Sequence record: PZ445412.1
DNA length: 50,731 nucleotides
Reading direction: 5' to 3' (one strand)
Origin: a phage
The position numbers and the translations under genes were made by a program. This document shows positions 8,324 to 39,053 of this stretch, in pieces; position 1 is the stretch's first letter, and each line of letters opens with the position of its first letter. The notes under the pieces were generated by a model, which was not told the DNA's origin, did not search any database, and worked only from the letters and a program-made list of their open reading frames with translations.

Positions 8324-8705
8324 ATTATCTGTTGCGGCAAGAATGGCGCTGGCTCAAGAATACGAAAGCGAATATATGATCGCTTATGAAAACGTTGAAT
8401 TTACGCCACCAAAAGGCGGCGGCATTTGGCTGAAATATGACTACAAAGAAGCAGATACAATAATTCATGATCTGAAAAGGAAATGCATTAGCTATATTGG
8501 AATGGTTCAGATCGGAATTGAATTCCCGCCAGGCTCAGGAATTGATAAGGCTCGCAAGCTGGCAAAAAATATTGCTGATTTCTTTGAAGATGGTAAAATG
8601 CTTTCGAATGGCTATATTTCAGAAGGTGCAAAAGTGCATCAAGTTCAGAAATCAGAATCAGGCTGGTTTTATCCAGTACGTTTTTATGTTCGTTATGATG
8701 GTTAA
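8313..8705 (+). CDS. tail terminator-like protein
   Basis: 130-aa ORF immediately upstream of major tail protein. Confidence 0.35.
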   Translation: MHYELSVAARMALAQEYESEYMIAYENVEFTPPKGGGIWLKYDYKEADTIIHDLKRKCISYIGMVQIGIEFPPGSGIDKARKLAKNIADFFEDGKMLSNGYISEGAKVHQVQKSESGWFYPVRFYVRYDG

Positions 8706-8719
8706 TAAAGGGGGCTATT

Positions 8720-9382
8720 ATGCACTTACCTAACGGAGCACAGATTTTTATTGAGAATACTCGCGCACAGGCAGTAAGCGCAACCAACGTTAGCAACGCT
8801 GAAAAACCGGAGTTCACTGTTGCAAGTGGCGGCACTGACTTTAAAAAGGGTGATTACATTATCGTTACCGCCTCAAGCTGGGGTAAATTGCTTGATCGCG
8901 TTCTGCGTGTGACGGCTGGAGAAGAAACAAAGGTTACTGTTGAAGGTATCGACACGACTGATGAAAACGTTTTTCCGTCTGGTAACGTTACCGCAAGTTT
9001 TGCCAAAATCAACGGATGGTCTGAAATTCCATGCGTACAGGATTTGGGTCAAGACGGCGGCGAGCAACAGTATTACAATTACCAGTGTTTGAGCGATGAC
9101 CAGGAGCAGCAGTTACCAACCTATAAAAGCGCGGTATCACTGACTTACACATTTGCGCATGAGTACGATAACCCTATTTATCCGCTCTTGCGTAAGGCTG
9201 ACGAATCCGGCGACGTTAAAGCATTGCGCATGTATGTACCAAAAGCGAAAGAAATGCGCCTTTGGGCTGGTGTGCTTTCTTTCAACGAGATCCCGCAAAC
9301 GGCGGTAAACGAAATGGAAACCGTTTCTTTGTCGGTATCCCTGAAAGGTCGCTTTACTTTCTTGCCGTCTACTCAGGCTTAA
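8720..9382 (+). CDS. major tail protein
   Basis: 220-aa ORF with RBS AAGGGGG; followed by terminator and then chaperone G/GT and tape measure (canonical siphovirus order). Confidence 0.6.
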   Translation: MHLPNGAQIFIENTRAQAVSATNVSNAEKPEFTVASGGTDFKKGDYIIVTASSWGKLLDRVLRVTAGEETKVTVEGIDTTDENVFPSGNVTASFAKINGWSEIPCVQDLGQDGGEQQYYNYQCLSDDQEQQLPTYKSAVSLTYTFAHEYDNPIYPLLRKADESGDVKALRMYVPKAKEMRLWAGVLSFNEIPQTAVNEMETVSLSVSLKGRFTFLPSTQA

Positions 9383-9387
9383 TTTAA

Positions 9388-9415
9388 AGGGGCGCATTGC
9401 GTCCCTTTTTTATTT
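9388..9415 (+). terminator. rho-independent terminator after major tail gene
   Basis: GGGGCGC-att-GCGTCCC followed by TTTTTTATTT. Confidence 0.6.
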
Positions 9416-9453
9416 GATGTAATATCACCTCAATATTTAACCACTCAGGAGAA

Positions 9454-9774
9454 ATGATAATGGCTAAAATGAAATTGACTCTTGCCCCGCTTCCAGATTT
9501 CAAACTTCCAGTTAAATTTGTATTGCCGGATGGTAACGAGCAGAAAATTGTGTTTACCGTTAAGCATAAAAAGGCCAGCGAGATTCAAGAGCTTTACCAG
9601 AAAGAAGGTATTAAAGATCCTGAATTCATCATGAATGTTGCCGTTGGTTGGGATCTGGAAGAAGAGTTCAACGAAGAAAACGCTCAACTGTTAGTTGATT
9701 ATTATCCTGGCGCGGCGCTGGCTCTTATGGGATCTTATTTAAGTGCGCTGGCAGGGCAACGCGTAAAAAACTAA
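9454..9774 (+). CDS. tail assembly chaperone (lambda G-like)
   Basis: 106-aa ORF before tape measure; ends with slippery A_AAA_AAC directly before stop. Confidence 0.6.
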   Translation: MIMAKMKLTLAPLPDFKLPVKFVLPDGNEQKIVFTVKHKKASEIQELYQKEGIKDPEFIMNVAVGWDLEEEFNEENAQLLVDYYPGAALALMGSYLSALAGQRVKN

Positions 9775-10091
9775 AACGGGCGGTTTATCTGTATTATCAG
9801 AAACCGCCGACAGATGCAGAATTGCAAGCCGTAGGATTAACACGCGCAGACTATGAAGGAGAAGATCCGCCAGAGGTCATATTTGATGAAAGTATGATGC
9901 AATCATGGGATATATTTTGCGCGATGGGCACACAGTGGCGTAGTGCTGGCGCTGGTGCTTACGGTTTTGATTATAATGTTTTGCCTATGTTATTCAGAAT
10001 CTATAAAATAGACGATGAAGAAATGGCCTTAAATGACTTGCGCATCATGGAACAAAAAGCACTGGAAATGATGCAAGCAAATAACAAATAA
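9454..10091 (+). CDS. tail assembly chaperone GT-like, predicted -1 frameshift product
   Basis: The -1 frame is open from 9699 to 10091; slippery heptamer AAAAAAC at 9765-9771; stem-loop GGCGGTTT...AAACCGCC 7 nt downstream. Confidence 0.5.
9765..9808 (+). promoter_or_regulatory. programmed -1 ribosomal frameshift site (slippery A_AAA_AAC plus stimulatory stem-loop)
   Basis: Heptamer at 9765-9771 in the G frame just before its stop; stem 9779-9786 / 9801-9808. Confidence 0.5.
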
Positions 10092-10115
10092 AGCGCCTAC
10101 GGGCGCTTTTTTTAT
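10091..10115 (+). terminator. rho-independent terminator-like hairpin before tape measure gene
   Basis: AGCGCC-tacg-GGCGCT followed by TTTTTTTAT. Confidence 0.55.
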
Positions 10116-10128
10116 GAGGGTAAAATAT

Positions 10129-13038
10129 ATGGCTGAACAATTTGCAGGTTTAACACTTGGCGTTAACGTCGAGCAGTTAAACAGGGCTGTAAAGTCATTG
10201 CAGGACTTTAAAAAAGCAAACGACGAAGCAAAGAAAGGCGTTGAGAGCTTTGTTAATGAGGAAGAAATTGCAAAGCAAAGAGCAAAGCAATTAGCTGATG
10301 AATTGGCGAAACAGAGCCGTGAATTTAAACGCATTCAGGACACTGTTGATCCGACAGCGGCGAAAATGCGCAAGCTATCTCAGGCCGCAAGTGATCTTGA
10401 TAAGCTATGGCAAAAGGGCATTGTTCCCGATGAAACGTTTTTCCAGTTGGGGAGTATGCTGGAAACTCAGATCAGTAAGCTGGAGCGTAATAAAAAGGCG
10501 TTAACGGAAGAAGGCCGCGCAGCACTTGAGGAATCAAAAGCCAAAGAGAAAGCAGCGTTAGCCGGAAAAACTTTCCTTGCGGATCTGGAATCGCAAGCCG
10601 CCGCTCTTGGCAAAACAAAAGCCGAATTGCTGGAAATGAAAGCGGCGCAACTTGGCGTAAGTGCTCAGGCAGCGCCATTTATCGCACAGCTTAAAGCGCA
10701 AGAAAAACAGATGAAGTTAACCGGAATTAGCGCTGGGCAATACAAGCAAGCTATGGCGCAACTTCCGGCTCAGATCACTGACGTTGTAACGTCGCTGGCT
10801 TCCGGTATGCCTGTTTGGTTGGTTGCAATCCAGCAGGGTGGACAGATTAAAGATTCTTTCGGCGGCGTTGGTAATACGTTTAAAGCGCTGTTGTCGTTTC
10901 TGAATCCGGTAAACGTTGGCCTTGCCGCATTAGCCGTTTCAATGGGTGCTCTTGTTAAGGCTGGTTATGATGCGTATAAATCGCAACGTGACTTGCAAGA
11001 GGCGTTGGTGCTGACTGGTGGATATGCTGGCACAAGCGGCGCACAGTTCGATAAGCTGGCGCAGGACATTAATAACAGCACTGATGCGACGATAGGAAAC
11101 ATCCGATCTATCGCAACAGAGCTTGCAAAATCCGGCAAGTTCACGATTGATCAGATTAAAGCAATCACGAAGACTACCGCTCAGTGGTCAACTGTAACGG
11201 GTGAATCAAGCGACAAGATAACCGATTACTTTAATAAGATTGCTGGCGATCCGGTTAAAGGTCTTGCAGAGCTAAACGAGCAATTCAACTTTTTAAGCGA
11301 AGGGCAGTTAACTTATATTGCAGACCTGGAGAAAACGAAAGGCAAAACGGAAGCAGTAACGGCGGCGACAAAGTTATTTGCTGATGTTATGGATCAGAGA
11401 TTAGCTAAACTGGCAGACTCCGCAACGCCATTAGAAAAGATGTGGACGAACATTAAAAAATGGGCGTCAGATGCATGGGGTTGGGTTGGGGATCATACGC
11501 TGGCGGCGCTTAACCTGATTATTGACGTTGTAGCCGGAACCGTTGAGCAGGTTCGTTACTTGCTTAATCAGGGTGATATTCTCATTGGTGAGTTTATCGT
11601 GTCTGCAACAAAGGCTATGCAAAAAATACCTGGTCTTGATGGAGTTGGTGATTCAGTAATTGCACAGCAGCAACAGATCATTAATAAATCAAAAGAGCAA
11701 AACAAAGAGCTATTAAAATCAATTGCCGAACGTAACGAGCGAGTCAAAAAAGGCGAGCAGGGTTACATTGACATGATGAAAAATCGTGCGGCGGTTGAAC
11801 AGCAATATGCTACTAAAACAAAGGAGAATATCAGGAAGGAAGCCGAGGAATTAGCCAAGCGCGATAAAAAACAAAAGGCTGAAAAAGTTAAAGTATCGGC
11901 TGGCGATAAGCTGGAAGAACAATATCAGCGTGATATCCTGGCTTTAGAAACTCAATTAAGAGTTTTGAAAGAGCATAAGACGATCACTGATACCATAAGC
12001 CAGCAACGTAAATCTTTATGGGCTGAACAGGCTAAAATTCAGATTCTGCAAGAAGCCTCAACAAAGCGGCAACTTACTGATGAAGAAAAAAGCATTTTAG
12101 CCAACAAAGATAAGATCCTGGCGATGGCTGAACAAAAAGCCATTTTAGGCGATCAGATTGTTGCACAAACGCGCCTTAATCAGTTGCAAGATAGCTCAAT
12201 CAAGTTTATCCAGCAGCAGAAAGCAGCAACAGAAGCACTAGCCAAAACCAGAGGGTTAAGCGAGCGTGAAGCAGCAAGAGCGGCGGAACGTGCAAAGGTT
12301 GAATCTGATTATCTTGCTAAGGGAGGACAGAAAGAAGATCCGCAACTTAAAGCCATGATGGATGCCTTAGACAACCGCTATAAAGAGGAAGATGCTAAAC
12401 GTGCTGATTGGTTGGCTGGAGCTAAAAATGCCTTTGCGGAGTACGGCGAGGAAGCAATGAACATGTATGATAATATCGGCAACATTGCGAGCCAGGCGCT
12501 AAACGGCCTATCGCAACAAATGGCTGATTTTTTGACTACTGGACAAGCCAACTTCAAAGACTTTGCAAAATCAATCATTAGCCTGATTGTTCAGATGATC
12601 ACAAAAATGGTTATCTTCAATAGCATTTCCGGCATGATGGGCGGCTCAACCTGGACGCTTGGAAGCCTTTTAAGCGGTGCTGGTTTTGCTGGCGGCGGTT
12701 ATACTGGCGACGGTGGCAAATATGATCCGGCTGGAGTTGTTCATAAAGGTGAGTTTGTTTTTACCAAAGAGGCAACGCAAAGGATCGGAGCCAAAAACCT
12801 ATATCGCATGATGCGAGGTTATGCAAACGGCGGTCAAGTAGGAAGCGTGACAACTGGCGGCGCTGGCATCAATCGCGGTGCATCGCAATTTGCGTTTGGT
12901 GATATCAACGTTAACATTGACAACGGTCAAGATCCAAAAGGGATGGAAACTGGTATCAAGATGATTTTCACTGAAATGATTCAACGGTCATGCTCGCAAG
13001 GTGGCGAGGTTTATAATTTTGTTCATGGGAGGGCTTAA
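10129..13038 (+). CDS. tail tape measure protein
   Basis: About 970 aa, long coiled-coil regions, Gly-rich C-terminus; start MAEQF at 10129. Confidence 0.85.
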   Translation: MAEQFAGLTLGVNVEQLNRAVKSLQDFKKANDEAKKGVESFVNEEEIAKQRAKQLADELAKQSREFKRIQDTVDPTAAKMRKLSQAASDLDKLWQKGIVPDETFFQLGSMLETQISKLERNKKALTEEGRAALEESKAKEKAALAGKTFLADLESQAAALGKTKAELLEMKAAQLGVSAQAAPFIAQLKAQEKQMKLTGISAGQYKQAMAQLPAQITDVVTSLASGMPVWLVAIQQGGQIKDSFGGVGNTFKALLSFLNPVNVGLAALAVSMGALVKAGYDAYKSQRDLQEALVLTGGYAGTSGAQFDKLAQDINNSTDATIGNIRSIATELAKSGKFTIDQIKAITKTTAQWSTVTGESSDKITDYFNKIAGDPVKGLAELNEQFNFLSEGQLTYIADLEKTKGKTEAVTAATKLFADVMDQRLAKLADSATPLEKMWTNIKKWASDAWGWVGDHTLAALNLIIDVVAGTVEQVRYLLNQGDILIGEFIVSATKAMQKIPGLDGVGDSVIAQQQQIINKSKEQNKELLKSIAERNERVKKGEQGYIDMMKNRAAVEQQYATKTKENIRKEAEELAKRDKKQKAEKVKVSAGDKLEEQYQRDILALETQLRVLKEHKTITDTISQQRKSLWAEQAKIQILQEASTKRQLTDEEKSILANKDKILAMAEQKAILGDQIVAQTRLNQLQDSSIKFIQQQKAATEALAKTRGLSEREAARAAERAKVESDYLAKGGQKEDPQLKAMMDALDNRYKEEDAKRADWLAGAKNAFAEYGEEAMNMYDNIGNIASQALNGLSQQMADFLTTGQANFKDFAKSIISLIVQMITKMVIFNSISGMMGGSTWTLGSLLSGAGFAGGGYTGDGGKYDPAGVVHKGEFVFTKEATQRIGAKNLYRMMRGYANGGQVGSVTTGGAGINRGASQFAFGDINVNIDNGQDPKGMETGIKMIFTEMIQRSCSQGGEVYNFVHGRA

Positions 13039-13385
13039 TGTTAGATGAATTTACCTGGTGTACGCAGATTCAGAGCGGCGGCGGTGTAATGACAACTATC
13101 AATAACGACAGGGAGGTTGTTTTTGGTAACGGTTATCGCCAAAAGGCATCTTCTGGATTTAACACGGAGCGGAGGGAGTTTTCTATTGTTTACGCTGGCA
13201 CTGATTATAAAAAAGTGAAAGCGTTCATGACGGATCACAGATTAAAGCCTTTCTTGTGGAGGATGCCGGATGGTGATTTAGGATTGTTCACGGTTAAAGC
13301 CGGAACGGTAGGACTAACGCCAATAAGCCCAACCGCTCAGGAAGTCAAAGCAACATTCACGGAAGAATTTACATCCATGCGATAA
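13038..13385 (+). CDS. minor tail protein (lambda M-like)
   Basis: 115-aa ORF overlapping tape-measure stop; position. Confidence 0.55.
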   Translation: MLDEFTWCTQIQSGGGVMTTINNDREVVFGNGYRQKASSGFNTERREFSIVYAGTDYKKVKAFMTDHRLKPFLWRMPDGDLGLFTVKAGTVGLTPISPTAQEVKATFTEEFTSMR

Positions 13386-37997: not shown

Positions 37998-38019
37998 GTT
38001 TTAACAAAAAGTGCTATTT
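37998..38019 (-). promoter_or_regulatory. conserved 22-bp box plus hairpin element
   Basis: Reverse complement AAATAGCACTTTTTGTTAAAAC; hairpin GCCGGAT-ctaga-ATCCGGC; CATAATGCAC; TCGAAAC. Confidence 0.6.
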
Positions 38020-38709
38020 CTGATTTGCCAGGCATACAGCAAGCGCAAAGCCGCGCGGAGTGAGTGAGCGGATCAGCTTTGTGCGCTTAGACTTGCCGCC
38101 GAGCTTTTGCCAGCCTGGATTGTTGTTCCCTGTTGGCAATACTGCGTTTGTATCCGGCATCACAAAGCCGTTACCCGTCCAAAGACAAGTTTTTTTGGTG
38201 TACGCATCGCGAGCGGGAATGATTTCAGGAAAGTGAGGATGTTTATCATCTTCCGGCAATAGACCGCCAAACGCGCAAGGATGAAATATAAAATCAGGTT
38301 GCCGCCACATCGACGACAGGACGCTAACAGGATTCTCGATCATGTATGGCACATTGAACCAATCCGCAATTTCAGCCGCAATCTTGCATGTTGAAACGGC
38401 CTTATCCTGGAATAGCGGATCACGTTCACGCTTTGCGGCAAAGTGACGCGAACCGCTAACAGCTAAATCAGTGCATGGAGGAAATGCAATCACAAAATCA
38501 GGCTTTCCGTAAACCTCATTGCGAGCCTTAAAGCTGAAATCTGAATCAATCCAAACGTTTACATACTCAATGTTGGGATGACTTACGCGCACTGAATGGT
38601 AATCACCATGATCGGCATCATCATAATTGAAACAGATTACTTTGTGACCACGTTCAGCCCACGGCAACGCATCATAACCGGAACCGCTAAAAAGAGAAAA
38701 AACTAACAT
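38014..38709 (-). CDS. putative C5-cytosine DNA methyltransferase-like protein (short)
   Basis: LFSGSG (motif I-like), FPPC with catalytic-type Cys, IENP (ENV-like); start MLVFSLF at 38709 with RBS AAGGAT; only about 231 aa. Confidence 0.35.
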   Translation of the reverse strand: MLVFSLFSGSGYDALPWAERGHKVICFNYDDADHGDYHSVRVSHPNIEYVNVWIDSDFSFKARNEVYGKPDFVIAFPPCTDLAVSGSRHFAAKRERDPLFQDKAVSTCKIAAEIADWFNVPYMIENPVSVLSSMWRQPDFIFHPCAFGGLLPEDDKHPHFPEIIPARDAYTKKTCLWTGNGFVMPDTNAVLPTGNNNPGWQKLGGKSKRTKLIRSLTPRGFALAVCLANQK

Positions 38710-38816
38710 ACTTAAATCCTTTGTGTATGGCCTTGTAAGGCGTTTTGTTTGGTGGTGTCGCAACTGTATTGGTTGCGACCTGAAATCGCGACACGATGCG
38801 AAACAGGCCGCTAATT

Positions 38817-39053
38817 TTAGAATGGGAAACAGCGCTTGCAAGATGGATCGAAGTTACAACCGCAATCATTGATTATTGCATTAGGATCAGCAAGCATCAC
38901 GCTACTTTCTTGATCCATATCCATAGCGCCTAATGCGTCATCAAGCGTTATTTCAAGATAGGCAACTTTGAGCGCCCACTCTTTGTTAAGTCCAGCCGCC
39001 TCCGCTTCATGTAGGCGAGCAAAGAAAGCATCTTGAACCATGATTAACTCCAT
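38817..39053 (-). CDS. hypothetical protein
   Basis: 78-aa ORF in leftward operon. Confidence 0.4.
   Translation of the reverse strand: MELIMVQDAFFARLHEAEAAGLNKEWALKVAYLEITLDDALGAMDMDQESSVMLADPNAIINDCGCNFDPSCKRCFPF

Follow-up and report, generated by a model that had tools for sequence, protein, structure and literature searches.

A conserved slippery site at the G/GT tail assembly chaperone locus of Escherichia phage DanielBernoulli (Bas08) and its likely use in −1 ribosomal frameshifting

The window analysed here is a stretch of 50,731 nucleotides from Escherichia phage DanielBernoulli (Bas08, MZ501059; Drexlerviridae, Tlsvirus), and all features of the locus described below lie on its plus strand. 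A Pfam scan revealed the gene order major tail protein (Phage_tail_3), G (Phage_TAC_4), T (DUF1799) and tape measure protein (TMP_2), with lambda-like neighbours of the G/T pair (TMP_2/Tape_meas_lam_C and Phage_min_tail). The upstream gene, encoding the major tail (tube) protein, occupies 8720–9382 (Phage_tail_3, E = 6e-66), and the downstream gene, encoding the tape measure protein, extends from 10129 to 13038 (TMP_2 and Tape_meas_lam_C); the start of the latter is given as 10114 in MZ501059, whereas the Shine-Dalgarno energy favours 10129. Placed between these two genes is an overlapping pair of open reading frames (ORFs), 9460–9774 and 9771–10091.

The first of the pair, G, is listed as an ORF at 9454–9774 with a TAA stop at 9772–9774, and is labelled "tape measure chaperone" in MZ501059 (ATG 9454, 106 aa). 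Its likely start, as judged from the ribosome-binding sequence, is ATG 9460 and not ATG 9454: a Shine-Dalgarno sequence for the G/GT gene, AGGAG, can be read at 9447–9451, 8 nt upstream of ATG 9460, and pairing with the 16S tail yields a duplex energy of −7.4 kcal/mol at ATG 9460 vs −3.4 kcal/mol at ATG 9454. The resulting 0-frame product (9460–9774, 104 aa) matches the Pfam family PF08748, Phage_TAC_4, over residues 1–104 (E = 1.7e-36; 125.6 bits vs a cut-off of 21.1), and is annotated here as a tail assembly (tape measure) chaperone. The second, T, is a segment of 106 codons and a stop in the −1 frame (9771–10091) that would be read only after a shift, and its translation matches Pfam DUF1799 (E = 5.7e-12). 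The −1 frame is open from 9699 to 10091, and the ORF lister gives its downstream part only as 9822–10091, from a TTG start. An earlier, sequence-only reading of the locus had reported the end of the chaperone ORF at 9774, the extent of the open −1 frame and the dependence of the separate downstream ORF on that TTG, all of which were confirmed. Joined across the overlap, the two segments give a fused GT of 210 aa, join(9460..9771,9771..10091). The profile PHROG 17368 (213 positions), which was built on the fused product, matches G at positions 1–107 and T at positions 109–213; searches of PDB sequences and of NCBIfam with the fused protein returned no matches.

The last two sense codons of G are covered by the slippery heptamer A_AAA_AAC (9765–9771). 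As the same reading had claimed, the heptamer stands in the correct X_XXY_YYZ register right before the G stop, which can be verified from the 0-frame codons GTA (9763–9765), AAA (9766–9768) and AAC (9769–9771), followed by TAA. This stop (9772–9774) directly abuts the heptamer and is a possible "shifty stop" component of the site. AAAAAAC occurs 24 times in the window, no more often than the 27.3 expected, so that its raw occurrence is no evidence of function. As a check on chance, 178 mechanically called ORFs of at least 60 aa were screened for an in-register X_XXY_YYZ heptamer in the overlap together with a −1 extension of at least 60 codons, and both were found in four of them. Two of these lie within the tape-measure and J genes and are spurious; another belongs to a minus-strand gene pair and has the poor heptamer T_TTC_CCA. 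The heptamer falls on the last two sense codons only in 9454–9774. Judged by sequence comparison, the significance of the heptamer site rests on its conservation.

The 28 relatives all share the same 13 nt, A-AAA-AAC-TAA-A, while their neighbouring codons vary freely, and GTAAAAAACTAAA is identical across 24 IMG/VR relatives with a G identity of 70–100%. Aligned by codon, the 28 sequences agree without exception at the final base of GTA/GCA, at the codons AAA and AAC and at CTA, with which the −1 frame begins; elsewhere in the same alignment, conserved Lys, Asn and Leu columns show 2–5 synonymous codons. C9771 is likewise unchanged in all 28, although a C to T change would be synonymous in both frames. 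The combination of A_AAA_AAC and a stop is also found in Tunavirus JMPW2, Guelphvirus ACG-M12, Webervirus Solomon, Sauletekiovirus AAS23 and Dhillonvirus slur05, and Ralstonia phage Dina has G_GGA_AAC and TGA at the equivalent site. Among the metagenomic (IMG/VR) loci surveyed, X_XXA_AAC with a stop immediately 3′ of the heptamer is present at 73 of 124, with TAA, TAG and TGA all in use. Most Webervirus relatives, being without the canonical heptamer, carry A_AAA_GTY TAA instead, so the rules for slipping are not uniform in the family.

Analysis of nucleotide diversity by codon position revealed a −1-frame periodicity that sets in at the slip site, with the first post-shift codon. Between the slip site and 9822, diversity at positions 1/2/3 is 0.085/0.096/0.371; it is 0.215/0.115/0.514 from 9822 to 9894, and 0.177/0.119/0.428 over the remainder of T. 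In all 28 sequences there are no stops in the T frame, and 1–7 in the other two frames. When the peptide predicted to follow the shift was searched with tblastn, the alignment began at its residue 1 for 1121 of 1153 phage records, and such matches reach down to 34–50% identity.

Beyond the heptamer, after a 7-nt spacer (9772–9778), lies a candidate stimulator hairpin (9779–9808) with an outer helix GGCGGUU/AACCGCC and an inner helix UCUG/CAGA, whose arms GGCGGTTT (9779–9786) and AAACCGCC (9801–9808) are complementary. Folding of 9760–9830 in RNAfold gave −18.9 kcal/mol, with a 7-bp outer and a 4-bp inner helix (z = −2.94 vs dinucleotide shuffles); 2% of synonymous recodings fold as well as the native hairpin, and its stability lies at the 1.7th percentile of the 42-nt windows of the locus. 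Hairpins of different sequence occur at the same offset in other lineages, and for 14 of the 24 lineage representatives this offset is within the most stable 10% of windows of their own locus. The stem-loop that had been proposed 7 nt downstream of the heptamer is present and unusually stable, and this part of the sequence-only reading is partly supported. A covariation test over a genus-level alignment of 21 relatives gave no support, the one double change being matched in 95–178 of 500 shuffles, and the hairpin is lost without compensation in L016, L023, ACG-M12 and AAS23, all of which keep the heptamer. An Rfam scan of 9300–10200 (E ≤ 1) found nothing at the frameshift site, and weak sRNA- or terminator-like matches at the flanking terminators. 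Because the arms encode the conserved peptide R-A-V...K-P-P, their complementarity may partly be a by-product of coding. A plausible role for the hairpin is that of a non-essential frameshift stimulator.

Taken from comparative sequence data, the reading that we hold with high confidence is that 9460–10091 holds the paired tail assembly chaperone genes of a T1/TLS-like siphophage, which are expressed via programmed −1 ribosomal frameshifting. The fusion could also come mainly from transcriptional slippage, with RNA polymerase adding one A in the run of six at 9765–9770, and the product expected from this, ...RVKK-LKRAV..., is the deposited conceptual translation of Stevie, LL5, Sazh and U136B. 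Efficient transcriptional slippage in E. coli, however, needs longer runs, of about 9 or more, than the A6 found here. The conserved property is the X_XXY_YYZ register and not run length, with relatives having G_GGA_AAC (three A) or CAAAAG (four A); the conserved seventh base, C, and the abutting stop would be left unexplained, and the hairpin is positioned downstream of the A run, not upstream of it in the nascent RNA. We consider this origin very unlikely here, even though bacteria are known to show slippage of this kind and some IS elements exploit it (reviewed in PMC5009743).

Still less likely is that T is a separate small gene with its own initiation at TTG 9822 or ATG 9894 and that no frameshift product is made. 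MZ501059 does annotate such a gene (bas08_0016, 65 aa, from ATG 9894), and stand-alone DUF1799 proteins of 48–104 aa have been called in many genomes; the lengths of these calls scatter (48, 55, 63, 65, 87, 89, 98, 99 and 104 aa), however, as is expected if no real start exists. ATG 9894 is a conserved Met codon in 27 of 28 relatives, but is missing from Solomon, and the 123 nt that precede it show third-position periodicity, no T-frame stops and conservation at the protein level. At 9822, a start codon is present in only 13 of the 28; the other 15 have TTA, CTT or CTG. No candidate start has a Shine-Dalgarno sequence: the duplex energy is +0.4 kcal/mol at both 9822 and 9894 and −0.4 kcal/mol at 9897, whereas neighbouring genes range from −6.1 to −10.7 kcal/mol. 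The preference of the sequence-only reading for a fused GT over an independent T is supported by every computational test applied to it: gene order, the fused PHROG profile, site conservation, coding constraint in the −1 frame, the lack of a Shine-Dalgarno sequence or conserved start codon for T, and the joined coding sequences (CDS) annotated in the genus. That the −1 ORF is a decaying remnant without an expressed product, its heptamer being coincidental in an AT-rich genome where the motif is common (the 24 copies, not enriched), is barely conceivable given that T is under strong purifying selection (third-position diversity 3–4 times that of positions 1 and 2), has homologues in 1153 phage records and both Pfam and PHROG families, and that heptamer, stop and first T codon are invariant.

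Under programmed ribosomal frameshifting, most ribosomes would stop at TAA 9772 after making G (104 aa), and a small fraction would slip back by one nucleotide on A_AAA_AAC (9765–9771), with tRNA-Lys re-pairing from AAA to AAA and tRNA-Asn from AAC to AAA. After the slip the −1 frame would be read as CUA AAA CGG ... to 10091, yielding the 210-aa G–T fusion. The abutting 0-frame stop and the hairpin 7 nt downstream probably lengthen the dwell on the site and lift an intrinsically weak heptamer to a useful low level of shifting. In lambda, the tape measure protein is bound by the G part and the major tail protein by the T part, and neither is found in virions (PMC5009743). By analogy, the tape measure protein of Bas08 would be coated with many copies of G and few of GT, recruitment of the major tail protein would fall to the T domain (DUF1799), and G and GT would be absent from the virion. 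Production of the GT fusion, its ratio to G, the roles of stop and hairpin and the protein contacts are what we infer for Bas08. The literature searched contains no experimental detection of the fusion for Bas08 or for Tlsvirus/Drexlerviridae, only genome announcements asserting the frameshift.

In E. coli reporters, shifting on A_AAA_AAC amounts to 0.16% when no stimulator is present, 0.19% when the IS911 stimulators are added and 0.74% when the IS3 pseudoknot is (PMC4066793 supplement). With a heptamer this weak, the expected yield is below the ~1:30 of lambda unless the stop and the hairpin help. We tentatively raise the possibility, as one that could well prove wrong, that the recoding signal of the DUF1799 family is a composite of weak heptamer, abutting stop and hairpin, and not a plain lambda-type heptamer. 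The suggestion draws on a heptamer type, X_XXA_AAC, that is poor in E. coli (0.16–0.74%) and is nonetheless fixed even at C9771, on a stop that is constant in position and variable in identity, and on a hairpin that often follows 6–8 nt later in a lineage-specific sequence.

The arrangement has several known counterparts. The −1 frameshift of lambda gpG/gpGT was reportedly described by Levin in 1993 and by Xu, Hendrix and Duda in 2004, 2013 and 2014. Bas08 shares with it the overlapping ORFs between the major tail and tape measure genes and an X_XXY_YYZ heptamer near the 3′ end of G, and the low-level −1 shift that produces the G–T fusion in lambda would, from the same arrangement read here, take place in Bas08 as well. 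No sequence homology to lambda gpG/gpT was detected, a Pfam scan (E ≤ 0.01) having given only Phage_TAC_4 and DUF1799; as far as sequence comparison goes, the relation to lambda G/T is one of functional analogy and positional equivalence, not of a common sequence family. Unlike in lambda, the Bas08 heptamer abuts the stop and is followed by a hairpin, and the families are Phage_TAC_4 and DUF1799. The heptamers differ too, G_GGA_AAG in lambda (PMC5009743) vs A_AAA_AAC in Bas08, with AAC being a weak A-site codon in E. coli (PMC4066793). The mechanism of lambda G/GT and its wide conservation are reviewed in PMC5009743.

The same A_AAA_AAC is used by IS1 insA-insB′, where a small amount of fusion is made in E. 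coli at low intrinsic efficiency and frameshifting is proven (PMC4066793). IS1 differs from the Bas08 site in that its product is a transposase and in having no established stimulator; a stop abutting the IS1 heptamer was found in no source consulted. An A-rich heptamer followed by a downstream hairpin, in the setting of E. coli translation, is also shared with E. coli dnaX (tau/gamma). In dnaX there is an upstream internal Shine-Dalgarno sequence, shifting reaches about 50%, and the shifted product is the shorter one, whereas it would be the longer one in Bas08. A dnaX-like upstream Shine-Dalgarno stimulator was considered for Bas08 and rejected: CAGGG is present in the window at 9752–9756, but neither it nor the AGGG within it is conserved, the Ala-Gly codons of relatives at this position being GCGGGC or GCTGGT, with a third-position identity of 0.3–0.4. 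The heptamer of dnaX, A_AAA_AAG, is highly efficient (PMC5009743), unlike A_AAA_AAC in Bas08.

The closest counterparts are within Tlsvirus itself, where tfmA/tfmS of Tls and the joined "tape measure chaperone" CDS of Stevie, Sazh, LL5 and U136B comprise the same genes in the same position with the same site, GTAAAAAACTAA. Joined frameshift CDS are annotated in Tls (tfmS), Stevie, Sazh and Solomon, and a conserved frameshift is stated in genome announcements (PMC4319613, PMC8407766). Reconstructed fusions are identical to Bas08 GT at 210 of 210 residues in Stevie, 209 of 210 in Sazh and 207 of 210 in Tls. There is no biological difference between Bas08 and these relatives; the DanielBernoulli record simply has no join, and its distal part appears as a 65-aa "hypothetical protein". 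The deposited product of Stevie and LL5 (AIX12284.1, AWY04347.1) differs at one junction residue, with KK and not KN: the join in the GenBank records of relatives, join(..9768,9768..), sits one codon earlier and gives KK, whereas tandem slippage predicts KN. The exact K-N-L fusion is absent from the protein collection searched, where the K-K-L version is present.

The site in Bas08 is real, and the G/GT frameshift predicted from it is an ordinary one, of the well-known kind by which T1-like phages obtain a short and a long tail assembly chaperone from a single gene. It is already known and annotated in the genus, and nothing about it is biologically new, since G/GT frameshifting was recognised in 1993–2004 as a conserved trait of long-tailed phages. 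Its outcome is an annotation correction, namely a joined 210-aa GT CDS for MZ501059 (record coordinates are those of the window +536) in place of bas08_0016, and a correct structural-gene annotation is of some value in a phage of the BASEL collection that serves as a model for defence systems. In addition, Pfam DUF1799 can be taken for the T domain of tail chaperones in T1-like phages. Quantitatively, a heptamer that E. coli reads weakly would have to deliver the right GT:G ratio from a position beside a stop. Should stop and hairpin set this ratio, possibly by P-site slippage while release factor is awaited, the family would have a distinct, tunable variant of tail-chaperone recoding, and if the composite reading is true the Webervirus branch with A_AAA_GTY TAA would amount to a natural tetramer-only experiment.

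The tail region at 8700–10200 matches Escherichia phage DanielBernoulli (Bas08, MZ501059.1; Drexlerviridae, Tempevirinae, Tlsvirus) over its full length at 100% identity in megablast, the window coordinate being the coordinate in that record minus 536. The same search matched 142 additional phage records, chiefly T1/TLS-like coliphages and phages of Salmonella and Citrobacter. Nineteen records labelled “Campylobacter jejuni” phage closely match this coliphage-type region, and “Streptococcus agalactiae phage MBBL140” has 94.8% identity to it; since the abstract of PMC13164509 describes T1-like phages as contaminants that recur in laboratories, these host labels are suspect.

Pfam assigned Phage_tail_3 (tail tube protein) to 8720–9382, TMP_2 and Tape_meas_lam_C to 10114–13038 and Phage_min_tail to 13038–13385, while the conceptual fusion of the chaperone G with the overlapping −1-frame segment T matched Phage_TAC_4 at residues 1–104 (E = 1.7e-36) and DUF1799 at residues 126–205 (E = 5.7e-12). 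This order is like that of lambda (V, G/T, H, M). Both parts also match PHROG 17368 (213 positions; G covers 1–107 and the post-shift peptide 109–213), which indicates that the family was built from fused products; the fused protein had no relative in the PDB and no NCBIfam model. Two strong intrinsic-terminator-like hairpins with T-tracts flank the G–T cassette, one following the major tail gene (9386–9408) and one preceding the tape measure gene (10090–10109, scoring on the minus strand too). Both are labelled as terminators in the records of phages Stevie and Sazh, and may lower transcription stepwise through the tail operon.

The sequence-only reading had proposed a −1 programmed frameshift here, and its coordinates were verified: G stops at 9772–9774, the open −1 frame spans 9699–10091, and the heptamer AAAAAAC at 9765–9771 lies directly before the stop (…CGC GTA AAA AAC TAA AAC GGG CGG TTT…), its first A being the third base of GTA and thus giving A_AAA_AAC in the X_XXY_YYZ register. 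The mechanical ORF list gives the −1 frame only as 9822–10091 (89 aa), with a TTG start. The heptamer alone is not special: the window has 24 copies, where 27.3 would be expected. Four of 178 mechanical ORFs (≥60 aa) have both a canonical heptamer in register and a −1 extension reaching 60 codons or more; two are spurious, inside the tape measure and J genes, one belongs to a minus-strand pair of genes whose heptamer, T_TTC_CCA, is a poor one, and only in 9454–9774 does the heptamer fall on the final two sense codons. The minus-strand pair, in which a 78-aa ORF (39053..38817) overlaps a 275-aa ORF (38841..38014) in the −1 frame with T_TTC_CCA at 38829, is probably an ordinary gene overlap with a start of its own.

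Conservation of the site is strict. The string GTAAAAAACTAAA is identical in 23 of 24 IMG/VR relatives whose G identity spans 70–100%, the remaining locus having been set aside for an indel within G (L026). A codon alignment of 28 distinct sequences, including Tunavirus JMPW2, Guelphvirus ACG-M12, Webervirus Solomon and Sauletekiovirus AAS23, shows the third base of the Val/Ala codon, AAA, AAC and the first −1 codon CTA to be invariant throughout. At adjacent third positions the majority base is shared by only 30–60% of sequences, and 2–5 synonymous codons occur at other columns of conserved Lys, Asn or Leu. A C-to-T change at 9771 would be silent in both frames (AAT for AAC, TTA for CTA), yet C9771 is invariant in these 28 relatives and in 73 canonical metagenomic loci. 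The opening −1 codons are rare in E. coli (CUA invariant, then CGG or AGG in 24/28), and together with C9771 they point to nucleotide-level selection beyond the textbook heptamer.

The arrangement also occurs in other phages: G ends in A_AAA_AAC and TAA in JMPW2, ACG-M12, Solomon, AAS23 and Dhillonvirus slur05, and in G_GGA_AAC and TGA in Ralstonia phage Dina. Among 124 IMG/VR loci retrieved with the T peptides of Solomon and slur05, 50 have A_AAA_AAC and 23 have G_GGA_AAC before a stop, which may be TAA, TAG or TGA. Judged by these endings, the modal architecture of the DUF1799 chaperone family is a weak X_XXA_AAC heptamer directly abutting the G stop. Another 38 loci have the ending seen in most Webervirus-type relatives (GCA AAA GTY/GCC TAA), in which the canonical heptamer is replaced by an A_AAA tetramer alone, at the penultimate codon (L032, Klebsiella phage TSK1 590–610; L039–L076); the −1 peptide L-R-R-A-V-Y-L is still conserved in them, and the type may represent a tetramer or P-site-only frameshift variant. 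In nine metagenomic DUF1799 loci, among them L092, L093, L103, L107, L108 and L110, the upstream ORF ends in C_ATT_GGC TGA, with no slippery heptamer at the stop.

The best-supported model is the lambda system with a weaker heptamer. In lambda, gpG and gpGT occur at about 30:1 and neither is found in the virion; the tape measure protein is bound by G and the G part of GT, and the major tail protein by the T part (PMC5009743). In E. coli reporters, −1 shifting was 0.163% on AAAAAAC and 0.291% on AAAAAAG with no stimulator, 0.189% and 4.3% with IS911 stimulators, and 0.739% and 39% with the IS3 pseudoknot (Sharma et al. 2014, PMC4066793 supplement). According to the authors, AAC-to-AAA re-pairing is poorly tolerated in bacteria, and weak heptamers such as A_AAA_AAC serve where little fusion is wanted, as in IS1 (PMC4066793). 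Here, the abutting stop and the downstream hairpin would probably increase output. The junction would read …RVKN-LKRAV… if slippage were tandem, or if the stop stimulated slippage in the P site once Asn had been decoded; it would read …RVKK-LKRAV… if only the P site slipped ahead of Asn decoding, or if RNA polymerase inserted an A. The deposited fusions of Stevie, LL5, Sazh and U136B (AIX12284.1 cluster) read RVKK, being joined one codon early, and a KN-junction fusion was absent from a collection of 15 billion proteins. That the fusion arises mainly by transcriptional slippage on the A6 run is unlikely: the conserved feature is the register-specific X_XXY_YYZ and not run length, given G_GGA_AAC and CAAAAG in relatives, and slippage would leave the conserved seventh base and the stop unexplained.

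The proposed stem-loop, a possible stimulator, is present 7 nt after the heptamer, where GGCGGTTT (9779–9786) is complementary to AAACCGCC (9801–9808). RNAfold gave −18.9 kcal/mol for 9760–9830, with an outer helix of 7 bp (9779–85/9802–08) and an inner one of 4 bp (9788–91/9798–9801). In favour of a functional role, one of 200 dinucleotide shuffles folds equally well (z = −2.94), as do only 2% of sequences recoded synonymously for the same peptide (mean −12.2 ± 3.2), and the 42-nt window after the heptamer falls at the 1.7th percentile of such windows in its locus. The Arg codon of the 5′ arm is a rare CGG or AGG in 24/28 sequences. Dhillonviruses have a hairpin of partly different sequence at the same offset (GGCGGCG/CGCCGCC), and unrelated hairpins begin 6–8 nt downstream in L080/81 and L085/94. 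Among 24 lineage representatives, which are not phylogenetically independent, 14 rank in the top 10% for stability within their own locus and 8 in the top 5%. Against such a role, no covariation was seen in 21 sequences (80.4% of cells pair, 80.0% in shuffles; one double change), the helix is disrupted, with no compensating change, in L016, L023, ACG-M12 and AAS23, the arms are coding sequence for the conserved R-A-V and K-P-P, and Rfam has no matching family. A role as a dispensable stimulator is plausible, with the chances roughly even.

Coding constraint on the −1 frame begins at the slip site. Nucleotide diversity at −1-frame positions 1/2/3 is 0.085/0.096/0.371 from there to 9822, 0.215/0.115/0.514 from 9822 to 9894 and 0.177/0.119/0.428 in the rest of T; the frame has no stop in 28/28 sequences, with 1–7 in the other two frames. 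In tblastn, the post-shift peptide matched 1153 phage records (1121 with at least 80% query coverage), and among the matches listed the alignments start with the first residue even where identity falls to about 34%. The intervening sequence, from the G stop to any possible internal start, is thus translated, which, together with the lack of a Shine-Dalgarno, contradicts an independently initiated T as in the DanielBernoulli record, where G (from ATG 9454) is followed by a 65-aa “hypothetical protein” (window 9894–10091) with no join. ATG 9894 is a conserved Met, and TTG 9822 is TTA, CTT or CTG in 15/28 relatives. No Shine-Dalgarno was found at 9822, 9894 or 9897 (16S-tail duplex +0.4, +0.4 and −0.4 kcal/mol); for genes nearby the values are −7.4 (G), −6.1 (tape measure) and −10.7 (major tail, M). 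Database entries for DUF1799 on its own come in nine lengths (48–104 aa), as expected where gene callers have no true start. Decay of T to a remnant is excluded by its purifying selection, seen in codon-position diversity. The preference for a fused GT over a TTG-initiated T is supported by site conservation, −1 coding constraint and the absence of start signals.

Public-record starts for G and tape measure appear a few codons early. For G, ATG 9460 is a likelier start than 9454 (AGGAG at 9447–51; −7.4 vs −3.4 kcal/mol), and for tape measure ATG 10129 is likelier than 10114 (GAGGG at 10117–21; −6.1 vs −2.5). ATG 10114 falls within the U-tract of the preceding terminator, and the later starts are those given in the records of Stevie and Sazh.

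The G/GT interpretation is supported by the sequence comparisons, and it is already known. Joined CDSs at the same site are annotated in Tls (tfmS over tfmA, AY308796), Stevie (“tape measure chaperone”, j2), Sazh (“Tape measure chaperone frameshift product”) and Solomon, and genome announcements state the frameshift explicitly (PMC4319613, PMC8407766). Reconstructed fusions are identical to that of the window at 210/210 (Stevie), 209/210 (Sazh) and 207/210 (Tls) residues. The practical value is an annotation fix, missing frameshift joins being a recognised, widespread gap (PRFect, PMC10885494). Of residual, mild interest are the tuning of a weak, stop-abutting heptamer and the behaviour of the tetramer-only Webervirus variant.
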